From positions 3,200,001 to 3,264,000 of the forward strand of contig CM000150.2 of assembly GCA_000004695.1 (NCBI GenBank): 64,000 nt of DNA, in the 5' to 3' direction. The translations under genes and the position numbers were made by a program. This document shows positions 23,232 through 25,869 of the stretch, piece after piece; position 1 is the stretch's first letter, and every line of letters starts with the position of its first letter. Below the pieces are notes generated by a model that was not told the DNA's origin, did not search any database, and worked only from the letters and a program-made list of their open reading frames with translations. The stretch comes from Dictyostelium discoideum (taxonomy: Eukaryota).

Positions 23232-25124
23232 TTAATTATCACTATCACTTTCGCTATCACTACTATAACTATCACTGTCGCTACTATAACTATCGCTATC
23301 ACTCTCTCCAGATTGAAAAGATGTACTCAAATTATTTTGGTTATTATTATTATTATTATTATTATTATTATTATTATTATTATTATTATTATTATTATTA
23401 TTATTATTATTATTATTATTATTATTATTATTGTCAGATGGTTGTTTTTGAGATGGATTATTAAAGGAAGCAATACTATTATTAGTACTATTGACAGGTC
23501 CATTACTTTTGTTGGTTGGTAAATTATTAAGTTTACTATTATTAGTATTGTTAGGAATATTGTTATTATTATTATTATTATTATTATTATTATTATTATT
23601 ATTGTTGTTATTATTATTATTAATAATAGAAGTATTGTTAGAAATGTTATTATTATTATTATTACCACCTAAAAAGTTTGGTGGTTGAACAGTTGTAGTT
23701 GGAGCAGATGGTCTTGCAGAAGATGATGGAGGCTTATAAGTTTTTGGTAAGAAACTAGAGCTATCATTTAGACCAATGCCTTTGCCATTGCTACTATTAT
23801 TATTATTATTATTATTATTATTATTATTATTATTATTGTTATTGTTATTGCTATTTGATTGAAATGGTGGTATGGTAGAAGCAGAATCATTCAAAGAAAA
23901 AGAAAGATCACCATCATTATTATTATTATTATTATGATTATTATTATTATTATTATTATTATTATTATTATTATTATTATTATTATTATTATTATTATTA
24001 TTATTGTTATCATCATCATTATCATTCCCAGTATTATTAAGGTTAACAGGGAATTCTTCAAATATGATATCTCCATCATCATCCTCTGTTTGTAGTTGTG
24101 GTGGTGCACTCAATATATCACCAGGTTTACCAAATAATTCTTCCTCTAATTCCATATTTATATCATTTAATTCATCATTTGTTGTATTATTGCTATTAAT
24201 ATAATTATTATTATTAGGCTTAGTATTTGTAATATTTGTTGATATTGATGCTGCTGTTGTAGTTGTTGTTGTAGTTGTTGTAGTTGTTGTTTCACAACCA
24301 ATCATATCTAAATCTTTTGCTAATAAATCGAAATCTTCTTTTGATTCTCTTAGACTATTATTGTTACTAAAATTTTTATTATTATTATTATTATTATTAT
24401 TATTATTATTATTATTATTATTATTACTTGAAGTATTTTTACTATTTCCAAATAAACTATTATTATTATTATTATTATTTGAACCTATTGTTGGAGTATA
24501 ATTTGGTTTTGAAGGATTAGAAGGTAAACTTTTACTGTTTGAAGGTAATTTAGCACCTCTACCCTTTCCGGTAGTTTGGGGTGGTGGACTAGTTGCTCTG
24601 TCATTGTTGTTTGTGGTAATTGGTAATTTTTTTGGTCTACCAGCCCTTTTACCTCCTTTTTTATTAGGTGGGGGCGGTGAGAATTTATTATCACTATCAT
24701 CACCAAAACTTGCTATATCTTCATCCTCTTGACTACTATTTAAATTATTGTTTATACTATTGCTATTATTATTATTACCACTGCTACTATTGTTGTTGTT
24801 ACTATGGCTACCTGTACTACTATTACTTTCAGCATCACTATCAAATGTATCATAATTACTGCTATTATTTGTATTACCATTATTATTATTATTACCATTA
24901 CTATTACCATTACTATTACCATTACTATTACCATTATTAGTACCATTATTATTATTATTATTATTATTTGTATTTGAGAAAAACATAGAAGATGATGGTG
25001 AAGATGATGAGGTTGATGATGAGGTTGATGAATGTATTGTTGGTTTATATTTATCATTTTTATTATTATTGACAGGAATATTTTCAAATGGATCATTATC
25101 TATTGATGCTAATAAATTTTTCAT
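23232..25124 (-). CDS. S/N/D-rich low-complexity nuclear-type protein with an AT-hook (KKGGKRAGRPKK) and an acidic SDSDSYSSDSDSYSSDSESDSDN tail. It is probably the 3' exon of the EAF-domain gene annotated at 25379..25869.
   Basis: 630-aa ORF. Non-repetitive stretches such as DLLAKDLDMIGCETT and ELFGKPGDILSAPPQLQTEDDDGDIIFEEFP have normal codon bias. In-frame splice acceptors at 25108/25110 or 25099/25101 lie just inside the ORF start. The S/D/E-rich tail resembles EAF-family C-termini. Confidence 0.55.
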   Translation of the reverse strand: MKNLLASIDNDPFENIPVNNNKNDKYKPTIHSSTSSSTSSSSPSSSMFFSNTNNNNNNNNGTNNGNSNGNSNGNSNGNNNNNGNTNNSSNYDTFDSDAESNSSTGSHSNNNNSSSGNNNNSNSINNNLNSSQEDEDIASFGDDSDNKFSPPPPNKKGGKRAGRPKKLPITTNNNDRATSPPPQTTGKGRGAKLPSNSKSLPSNPSKPNYTPTIGSNNNNNNNSLFGNSKNTSSNNNNNNNNNNNNNNNNKNFSNNNSLRESKEDFDLLAKDLDMIGCETTTTTTTTTTTTAASISTNITNTKPNNNNYINSNNTTNDELNDINMELEEELFGKPGDILSAPPQLQTEDDDGDIIFEEFPVNLNNTGNDNDDDNNNNNNNNNNNNNNNNNNNNNNNNHNNNNNNDGDLSFSLNDSASTIPPFQSNSNNNNNNNNNNNNNNNNNNSSNGKGIGLNDSSSFLPKTYKPPSSSARPSAPTTTVQPPNFLGGNNNNNNISNNTSIINNNNNNNNNNNNNNNNNNNNNIPNNTNNSKLNNLPTNKSNGPVNSTNNSIASFNNPSQKQPSDNNNNNNNNNNNNNNNNNNNNNNNNNNNNNNNQNNLSTSFQSGESDSDSYSSDSDSYSSDSESDSDN

Positions 25125-25256
25125 TATTATTATTATTATTATTATTATTATTATTATTATTATTATTATTATTATTATTATTATTATTATTATTATTATT
25201 ATTATTATTATTATTATTATTATTATTATTATTATTATTATTATTATTATTATTAT
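25125..25256. repeat. (ATT)n on the plus strand, (AAT)n on the minus strand, of about 43 units, lying between the EAF exons and the S/N-rich ORF.
   Basis: A perfect trinucleotide repeat. Read in the frame of the downstream ORF it would be poly-Ile, so it is unlikely to be coding. Confidence 0.95.
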
Positions 25257-25378
25257 TGTTATTGTTATAATTATTAAATATTTTTATTAGTATTAGTATT
25301 ATTATTATTGTTACTTTACAATAATTTGTATTTTTTTTTATTTTATTTTTTTTTATTTTTTTTAATATTTAAACCTAC

Positions 25379-25869
25379 ATCTGTTTGAATTACTATTTAA
25401 TTTCCTTATTACAGATGAAGAGCTTATTTGTCTCTCAAGTCTAAAAACACCATTTTCAAATATTAATAAACATTCCATCTCTTTACAAGGTTTATATGCA
25501 CCAAAGAAATCGAATTTCTCATTAGTTGATGTATGATTATGCTGTATATGAATTGAGCCTTGATTCATCTTTATTAACGCTTTACTTGTATCCAGACTCT
25601 TGGGTTTAAGATTATCTATTATAAATTATTATTATTATTATTATTATTTTTATTTATTATTATAATTGTTTTTTTTTTTAATTAATTTTTAAAAACAGTA
25701 GACTAAAAATATTTATATATTTATTAAAAAAAAAAAAAAAGTGATACTTACATTGTAATGTATGATATTGTTCATTATTAACAAAATCACTATCCCTCTC
25801 CATTGTGGGACCTATTTCAACATCATATGTCATATCATTCTCTGGTTGTTTAATATTTGATGTTGCCAT
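25379..25869 (-). CDS. EAF (ELL-associated factor) N-terminal domain exons, join(25379..25615,25752..25869). The exon-2 donor at 25373-25378 (GTAGGT) is phase 1. If it is not used, the frame stops at 25362.
   Basis: Exon 1 encodes MATSNIKQPENDMTYDVEIGPTMERDSDFVNNEQYHTLQ and ends with a GTAAGT donor. Exon 2 encodes YNLKPKSLDTSKALIKMNQGSIHIQHNHTSTNEKFDFFGAYKPCKEMECLLIFENGVFRLERQISSSSVIRK.... The product is collinear with the EAF1/2 N-domain (..FHTIRYDFKPASIDTS.....[39 protein letters not shown]). Confidence 0.6.

Follow-up and report, generated by a model that had tools for sequence, protein, structure and literature searches.

A single three-exon gene very probably occupies positions 25869 (ATG) to 23232 (stop) on the minus strand of the window, the 64,000-nucleotide stretch of Dictyostelium discoideum AX4 chromosome 1 analysed here. 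We read it as the D. discoideum orthologue of EAF, an elongation factor for RNA polymerase II, with its two halves joined across the second intron (Table 1). In this model, exons 1 and 2 would encode the N-terminal EAF domain and exon 3 some 625 low-complexity residues with several conserved features, the halves being linked by a phase-1 GT-AG intron that begins at a GTAGGT donor (25378). Splicing to the first AG past a long AAT repeat (25110/25109, with the exon starting at 25108) is most probable, and would yield an intron of 270 nt and a protein of 743 aa. The original prediction had already proposed, from sequence alone, that the EAF exons and the downstream Ser/Asn/Asp-rich open reading frame (ORF) form one gene across a repeat-bearing intron. 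That reading is now well supported by five independent lines: an intron at the same place in D. purpureum, relatives that carry both halves in one chain, the layout of EAF proteins in general, predicted models of 743 and 809 aa in newer annotations, and the artefactual nature of the ATG that opens the downstream ORF. The AX4 reference model, DDB_G0270900, has exons 1 and 2 and the EAF domain as described here and omits the C-terminal exon. It is a truncation, since it reads into unspliced intron 2: without splicing, exon 2 continues as CRFKY and then meets an in-frame TAA, which is the annotated 123-aa protein. Our search of the published literature found no paper on a Dictyostelium ELL-associated factor or on DDB_G0270900.

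Table 1. Features of the proposed EAF gene, in window coordinates.
Feature	Position	Strand	Description
Exon 1	25752..25869	-	118 nt; phase-1 end preceding GTAAGT; matches the exon of annotated protein P0001
Intron 1	25616..25751	-	136 nt, GTAAGT...TAATAG; donor at 25751; (AAT)7 tract ending 10 nt before the AG
Exon 2	25379..25615	-	237 nt; codes for the EAF N-terminal domain jointly with exon 1
Intron 2 (favoured form)	25109..25378	-	270 nt, 95% A+T, phase 1, GTAGGT...TATTAG
In-frame TAA	25362..25364	-	within intron 2; terminates 123-aa DDB_G0270900 if the intron is retained
ACTAAT motifs (two, overlapping register)	25286..25297	-	TACTAATACTAAT; 178-184 nt upstream of the first acceptor (25110/09)
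Perfect (AAT)45	25123..25257	-	3' portion of a 191-nt imperfect AAT-like tract (25123-25313)
Exon 3	23232..25108	-	625 codons plus TAA at 23234-23232; N/S/T/D-rich, with blocks conserved among dictyostelids
Basic GRP motif resembling an AT-hook	24627..24650	-	KRAGRPKK; KKAGRPRK in D. purpureum, KKAGRPPKK in P0004
Acidic serine cluster	23235..23312	-	SGESDSDSYSSDSDSYSSDSESDSDN; C-terminal; common to the C-termini of EAF relatives

Exon 2 ends in phase 1 at GTAGGT (25378-25373), the donor named in the original prediction and confirmed here; it differs from the GTAAGT of the three other introns examined. Only four AGs lie between this donor and position 25090, namely 25376/75 (within the donor itself), 25315/14, 25110/09 and 25101/00, and an exhaustive enumeration of GT-AG pairs left only the last two as keeping the frame downstream of the donor. 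Either of them restores one reading frame as far as the stop at 23232, with the exon starting at 25108 (270-nt intron, 743 aa) or at 25099 (279 nt, 740 aa), in agreement with the two acceptors initially put forward. The prior for an in-frame first AG is about 1 in 3, and the frame match alone is thus weak evidence. Introns of D. discoideum average 143 nt with an SD of 158 (PMC2483917), and a 270-nt intron 2 lies less than one SD from that mean. Alternative in-frame donors, GTAATT at 25393 and those within exon 2, were rejected, as they lose conserved residues of the EAF domain or lack the G at +5. Neither spliced junction was matched in a pattern search of JGI contigs, and a protein-guided scan of JGI contigs returned 542 pattern matches, none of which was confirmed.

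Comparison with other dictyostelids bears directly on the join. At the position of intron 2, D. purpureum possesses a 66-nt phase-1 intron (GTAAGT...TTTTTAG) that links its EAF exons to a homologous ORF, and its counterpart of intron 1 (64 nt, phase 1) likewise falls at the same position. The D. purpureum ORF contains 48 stop-free codons between the acceptor and its first ATG (P ~0.012 by composition), and identity between the homologous sequences is 46% overall. The existing D. purpureum model, DICPUDRAFT_22775 (112 aa, partial), agrees with the D. discoideum gene in exons 1-2 and the EAF domain, stops at or before intron 2 and omits the C-terminal exon, most of which is carried by a 461-aa downstream ORF without a gene call. 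In two other dictyostelids both halves are found in one polypeptide: P0003, and the 545-aa P0004, which is read as an uninterrupted ORF on four transcript-sized contigs of 1.83-1.95 kb. Around the intron 2 acceptors themselves, the alignment of orthologues is uninformative.

Newer GenBank models from the D. discoideum clade provide a further comparison. The assemblies concerned, GCA_054883475.1 and GCA_054859355.1, are probably those of Holland et al. 2025 (PMC12745789). In the former (contig JBTAPE010000039.1) the gene is identical to that of the window and is given a product of 743 aa, for which introns of 136 and 270 nt are the only sensible fit by exhaustive GT-AG enumeration. In the latter the product is 809 aa, and its unique fit is a pair of introns of 135 and 123 nt that use the same donor and acceptor. 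These models are predictions, and the 743-aa one was matched here by span and length; in both, span and product length agree with the proposed gene model. A 743-aa product is, in other words, already present at this locus in recent GenBank annotation as a predicted model. The two alleles that differ from AX4 (L007 and L008) retain the donor and acceptor of an intron 2 of 122-123 nt, and the donor and acceptor-region sequence (GAAAAATTTATTAGCATCAATAG) is unchanged in alleles that have diverged by ~2.4%. The L008 model has a frameshift within a poly-N tract, and its annotated 797-aa product requires an extra intron; we treated this model as an assembly or annotation artefact.

The EAF domain is the ELL-binding domain of the human protein. 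In the D. discoideum gene, the 118 residues encoded by exons 1-2 match the Pfam EAF profile PF09816 (E=2.1e-12; 47.8 bits, against a gathering cut-off of 26 bits; residues 15-105 versus profile positions 1-96 of 105), and they also match human EAF1 (PDB 7okx chain O; E=1e-3; residues 33-114 versus 28-113) in a weak but collinear fashion. Under the joined model, the C-terminal region that comes after this domain is rich in Ser, Asp and Glu. The same three residues are described as abundant in EAF1 and EAF2, which also have a C-terminal transactivation domain (PMC11586179). The conserved blocks of exon 3 comprise SKEDF..LAKDL, GDI.FEEFPV, FSLNDS..IPPF and VQPP, as well as the basic GRP motif and an acidic Ser/Asp/Glu tail. 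This tail, SGESDSDSYSSDSDSYSSDSESDSDN, aligns with the acidic serine tails of P0003, P0004 and P0011, and similar ones end P0009, P0010, P0012-P0014, P0017 and P0020. Save for the 123-aa P0049, all nine relatives that were read have the acidic serine cluster as their C-terminal end. Across 57 EAF relatives, the median length is 285 aa, with 43 of them reaching at least 200 aa and six measuring at most 150 aa. In most of the matches listed, the matched stretch opens at one of the protein's first 20 residues. The layout initially attributed to EAF proteins elsewhere, an N-terminal domain with an acidic, serine-rich tail, is general among these relatives.

AT-hooks have an R-G-R-P core with basic flanks. 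The downstream ORF had been described as an AT-hook ORF, a label based on one motif: KRAGRPKK has the GRP core and the basic flanks with Ala replacing the first Arg, and AGRP is kept in D. purpureum and P0004 (PRGRS in P0003). The profile search returned no match to the Pfam AT-hook at E<=1.

The repeat within intron 2 was counted as (AAT)45 rather than the 43 units first reported, and it ends 12 nt ahead of the first acceptor AG and 21 nt ahead of the second, where 6-15 nt had been given. Long perfect AAT runs are not rare in the window, where 11 perfect trinucleotide runs reach 20 units or more, (AAT)59 among them. The tract contains neither GT nor AG and lies entirely within the intron, so that slippage alters intron length only. 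Against the (AAT)45 of AX4, the tract is (AAT)6 in two further assemblies of the D. discoideum clade, a 7.5-fold difference in length; as the splice sites are kept, the repeat is both length-polymorphic and tolerated. The length polymorphism that the original prediction had proposed looking for is therefore present. Its description of the repeat as highly mutable needs tempering in view of published estimates of D. discoideum microsatellite mutation rates, which conflict (PMC9234386). In D. discoideum, the variability of non-coding repeats is reported to equal that of coding ones (PMC9234386). Intron 2 would, on our model, be an ordinary short dictyostelid intron in which an internal tract of the (AAT)6 type has grown to (AAT)45 in the AX4/AX2 laboratory lineage.

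Such growth has a bearing on the branch site. The hexamer ACTAAT is the commonest branch-site hexamer in D. discoideum introns (PMC2483917), and its distance to the acceptor is 43 nt in L007 and 17 nt in D. purpureum, versus 178-184 nt in AX4. The last of these is unusually distant, if ACTAAT is indeed the branch site. The TAATAAT units of the repeat match the branch-site consensus, TACTAAY, at 6/7 positions, and the last such units lie 15 and 24 nt from the two AGs. The repeat itself may consequently provide the branch site, in place of an ACTAAT displaced ~180 nt upstream.

If the branch site does fall in the last AAT units, the second AG (25101/25100) would lie at the more usual distance (24 versus 15 nt), and both joins are in frame. 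Use of this AG, or of both as tandem 3' splice sites, is consequently a possible, though doubtful, variant of the one-gene model. The first AG downstream of a branch site is usually favoured in splicing, and the GenBank product lengths of 743 and 809 aa fit the first acceptor.

The expansion of the repeat might also cut the efficiency of splicing in AX4/AX2, leaving retained or intronically polyadenylated transcripts and a 123-aa protein beside the full-length one. It shifts ACTAAT from 43 nt to ~180 nt off the acceptor, and an in-frame stop and AATAAA hexamers stand near the 5' end of intron 2; but near-consensus branch sites lie at suitable distances within the repeat itself, and intron 1 likewise has an AAT tract beside its acceptor. 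Judged on these sequence features, impaired splicing appears unlikely. A short isoform ending at the in-frame stop may occur, given the AATAAA hexamers that follow it. It is more doubtful still that NC4-derived laboratory strains (AX4/AX2) are partial natural EAF hypomorphs which, through impaired removal of intron 2, make the truncated 123-aa protein. Should this prove true, expansion of a non-coding repeat would underlie a splicing defect in a model organism that is known to tolerate repeats.

A more radical departure from the one-gene model would be two genes, a 123-aa EAF-domain-only protein and a 630-aa ORF transcribed independently, out of the A/T-rich spacer, and starting at the ATG at 25124, the products of a fission specific to D. 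discoideum. The AX4 reference annotation (DDB_G0270900, 123 aa) takes this form for its first part, the ATG has an A-rich context, AATAAA occurs at 25357, 25347 and 25342, directly past the stop, and a few EAF-family representatives (6/57) do measure 150 aa or less. Against this reading, the orthologues are contiguous, and the phase-1 donor and in-frame acceptor are kept in 3/3 D. discoideum-clade alleles. The ATG consists of the last AAT unit followed by G and is without counterpart in orthologues, with none there in D. purpureum; it arises as an artefact where the repeat ends. At 95% A+T, AATAAA is expected by chance, and the CRFKY tail is not conserved, the unspliced read-through of D. purpureum being KFKIKFIHSIV. 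The downstream ORF (25124-23232; 36.5% N, 14.6% S and 6.2% D) has no separate model in the protein collection: homology searches with the C-terminus gave no D. discoideum protein with the 630-aa ORF among the matches listed, whereas the neighbouring gene is present in the collection. An exact look-up of the 630-, 743- and 740-aa sequences in the collection of 15 billion proteins found none of the three. We consider two genes very improbable.

AAT repeats in D. discoideum commonly encode poly-asparagine. That this one does so, by way of a short intron ending at the AG nearest the donor (25315/25314, set aside in the original prediction as out of frame), is refuted by the sequence: the join would place AAT in the Asn frame, but it gives LTIIIILILIKIFNNYN, poly-N, EKFISINR and two stops directly after the repeat, there is no GT past the repeat to open a further intron, and the AG is lost in both other alleles, which read AA there.

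The main value of the one-gene model lies in the correction of annotation. The AX4 reference, as found in dictyBase, NCBI and UniProt, presents the EAF orthologue as a 123-residue fragment, and the D. purpureum model is likewise truncated. Work that relies on the short models, whether knock-outs, tagging constructs, proteomic searches or orthology tables, would miss ~85% of the protein, likely including the transactivation tail, while a tag placed at the annotated C-terminus would land inside an intron. The locus also offers a clean natural pair of intronic microsatellites, of 45 and 6 units with splice sites unchanged, which may serve as a test case for branch-site choice in the strongly A+T-rich introns of D. 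discoideum. What is known of EAF proteins or of Dictyostelium repeats is unaltered; the biology is ordinary.

Set against known systems, the proposed protein shares with the EAF family (human EAF1 and EAF2; PF09816) an N-terminal domain of ~100 residues, a Ser/Asp/Glu-rich region that follows it and a terminal acidic serine cluster, the last being a feature of relatives across many organisms. It differs in length, 743 aa being two to three times longer than typical EAF relatives, and the excess consists of poly-Asn/Thr/Ser tracts, which are typical of D. discoideum. Dictyostelid-specific features also set it apart from the family, namely the basic GRP motif together with the blocks FEEFPV and IPPF. 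The intronic repeat, for its part, resembles other non-coding simple-sequence repeats of D. discoideum in being an A+T-rich trinucleotide whose length varies among isolates, and is unusual only in the 7.5-fold difference and in its site between a consensus branch motif and the acceptor.

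The two exons carrying the EAF domain encode 118 residues, which match Pfam EAF (PF09816) at 47.8 bits (cut-off 26) over profile positions 1-96 of 105 and also match human EAF1 (PDB 7okx; E=1e-3). If exon 2 is left unspliced, a stop follows after five more codons, giving exactly the 123-aa reference model; the 123-aa protein encoded at the locus matches Dictyostelium discoideum AX4 DDB_G0270900 at 100% identity. The original prediction joined these exons to a downstream 630-aa ORF (Asn 36.5%, Ser 14.6%) across an intron holding an AAT repeat. Its observations were correct but for small miscounts: the perfect run is (AAT)45 at 25257-25123 rather than (AAT)43, and the distance from its end to the candidate AGs is 12 nt for the first and 21 nt for the second, not 6-15 nt. 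The "AT-hook" of the ORF refers to the motif KRAGRPKK, which has no Pfam support.

Features of the EAF exons and of the intron 2 donor, in window positions
Feature	Position or length	Strand	Remark
Exon 1	25869 (ATG)-25752	minus	then GTAAGT
Intron 1	136 nt	minus	between 25752 and 25615
Exon 2	25615-25379	minus	ends phase 1 before GTAGGT
Intron 2 donor GTAGGT	25378-25373	minus	phase 1

Only four AGs occur from this donor to 25090 (window G+C, 21%): one within the donor itself, one at 25315/14, and two, at 25110/09 and 25101/00, that each reopen the frame through to the stop at 23232, as had been proposed. The former yields a 270-nt intron and 743 aa, the latter a 279-nt intron and 740 aa. Since roughly one first AG in three would be in frame by chance, the window sequence alone is not decisive on whether this is one gene.

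The gene next upstream is veg114, which encodes a PH-domain protein (818 aa, XP_646147.1; 26604-29060, minus strand), and a tRNA-Thr gene (anticodon AGT; 22819-22890, plus strand) lies ~340 nt past the EAF stop codon, on the opposite strand. Via the veg114 protein we reached three recent GenBank assemblies, L006, L007 and L008, which probably represent AX2-214 and wild "discoideum-clade" isolates of Holland et al. 2025 (PMC12745789). In L006 (GCA_054883475.1) the gene is identical to the window at every base, and its annotation, spanning the same 2,638 nt, gives a 743-aa product. Enumeration of every model of that length gave two GT-AG solutions, one with introns of 136 and 270 nt (GTAAGT...TAATAG and GTAGGT...TATTAG), the other implausible in its donors, GTTTTT and GTAATT. 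The 809-aa product annotated in L007 (GCA_054859355.1) has a unique fit, with introns of 135 and 123 nt and the same donor and acceptor. The homologous model in L008 (GCA_054859385.1) carries a frameshift within a poly-Asn tract, possibly through an assembly error, and the annotated 797-aa product requires an extra intron.

We propose that D. discoideum splices intron 2 out and that the first of the two AGs, 25110/09, would be the acceptor, with exon 3 starting at 25108. An intron of 270 nt is less than one SD from the D. discoideum mean (median 103, mean 143, SD 158 nt; PMC2483917). ACTAAT is the most frequent branch-site hexamer of D. discoideum (18.7% of introns; PMC2483917); its distance to the acceptor is 17 nt in D. 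purpureum, 43 nt in L007 and 178-184 nt in AX4. This distant site may still function, 25110/09 being the first AG past it; alternatively, the AAT repeat itself may supply the branch site, each TAATAAT unit matching TACTAAY at 6 of 7 positions and the last units lying 15 nt from the first AG and 24 nt from the second. 25101/00 also restores an open frame, and it, or both AGs, may be used instead.

Intron 2 of the EAF gene contains a length-polymorphic AAT microsatellite. (AAT)45 is the 3' end of an imperfect AAT-like tract of 191 nt, so that the remainder of the 270-nt intron is just 79 nt. Examining alleles for length polymorphism, as originally suggested, revealed (AAT)45 in AX4 and L006 and (AAT)6 in L007 and L008, whose intron 2 accordingly measures 123 or 122 nt. 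The latter two differ from AX4 by ~2.4% substitutions in neighbouring coding sequence and share its donor and acceptor-region sequence GAAAAATTTATTAGCATCAATAG; both have AA in place of the AG at 25315/14. Together with the lack of an AAT tract in the D. purpureum intron 2 sequence, the short alleles and unchanged splice sites point to a short, ordinary intron in which the repeat expanded on the lineage toward the laboratory strains. The repeat contains neither GT nor AG, and slippage thus alters intron length only. Intron 1 also has an AAT tract, (AAT)7 (25616-25667, minus strand), that stops 10 nt short of its acceptor AG; such a tract next to an acceptor is evidently tolerated. Description of the repeat as highly mutable calls for caution, as mutation-rate estimates for D. 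discoideum microsatellites conflict (reviewed in PMC9234386). Coding poly-Asn and poly-Thr tracts of exon 3 (23232-25108) likewise vary among alleles (743 vs 809 aa), and poly-Asn length variation is usual in this species (PMC9234386). Long perfect triplet runs are common in the window: 11 reach at least 20 units, including (AAT)59, (ATA)40 and (CAA)37, at 16721-16897, 33429-33548, 10419-10529 and elsewhere. Intron retention, perhaps favoured by the AAT expansion, may yield a short isoform, the sole reading that would lift the locus above the routine.

At the syntenic D. purpureum locus (L001, GL871035.1) a PH-domain gene is followed by the EAF gene, and the tandem order is kept (veg114 counterpart, L001 7002-9423). 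The EAF model in this region (L001 10400-12041), DICPUDRAFT_22775, is a "partial" 112 aa, likewise truncated, and the 1.9 kb past it, covering intron 2 and a C-terminal exon with a 461-aa ORF, carries no annotation. Exon 2 extends to a phase 1 GTAAGT donor, conserving intron position and phase; a 66-nt intron with a TTTTTAG end follows, and the exon after it continues in the frame of the 461-aa ORF, a clear homologue of the 630-aa ORF. From acceptor to first ATG there are 48 open codons (probability ~0.012 from base composition). In other dictyostelids the two halves are contiguous: P0004 (545 aa) is a single chain with both the EAF domain and the same C-terminal blocks, and so is P0003, the EAF portion of a EukProt model that merges two proteins. 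Four separate JGI contigs (1.83-1.95 kb, no other gene on each) encode P0004 as a single unbroken ORF, and their transcript-like size and absence of both introns suggest assembled mRNA. The P0003 model (gene4955-6172_t, 1215 aa) fuses a veg114-like PH-domain protein with a full EAF protein, probably because the same tandem pair was read through or merged in prediction.

All of this comparative evidence contradicts two separate genes, a reading that could cite the 123-aa reference model, AATAAA hexamers and the ATG at 25124 that opens the 630-aa ORF. The hexamers, however, sit in 95% A+T sequence. The ATG (25122-25124, minus strand), formed fortuitously by the last AAT unit and the next G, is without counterpart in orthologues, and, upstream of it, the frame stays open across the repeat solely as poly-Ile. 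That the repeat is coding poly-Asn is refuted by the sequence, the AG at 25315/14 being unusable, as predicted: a join there reads the repeat as Asn before meeting two stops.

The single-gene interpretation is thus well supported by comparative evidence and GenBank models: the locus is the D. discoideum EAF orthologue, and its reference annotation a fragment. The AX4 reference and the protein databases queried hold the 123-aa fragment only. A 15-billion-protein collection lacks the 630-aa ORF and the 743-, 797- and 809-aa GenBank products, and contains neighbouring proteins from those assemblies; it may filter out very low-complexity proteins. With a predicted full-length model already in GenBank, this is a useful annotation correction and ordinary biology.

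The proposed layout, EAF domain first and acidic serine tail last, was seen in family relatives. Among 1.84 billion representative proteins, a profile search identified 57 (median 285 aa), just six of them of 150 aa or less; in most of the hits listed the match begins within the first 20 residues. Of nine relatives read, all but P0049 (123 aa) terminate in an acidic serine cluster resembling SDSDSYSSDSESDSDN, which ends the 630-aa ORF. These C-termini agree with the description of EAF1 and EAF2 as Ser-, Asp- and Glu-rich proteins that have a transactivation domain at the C-terminus (PMC11586179).
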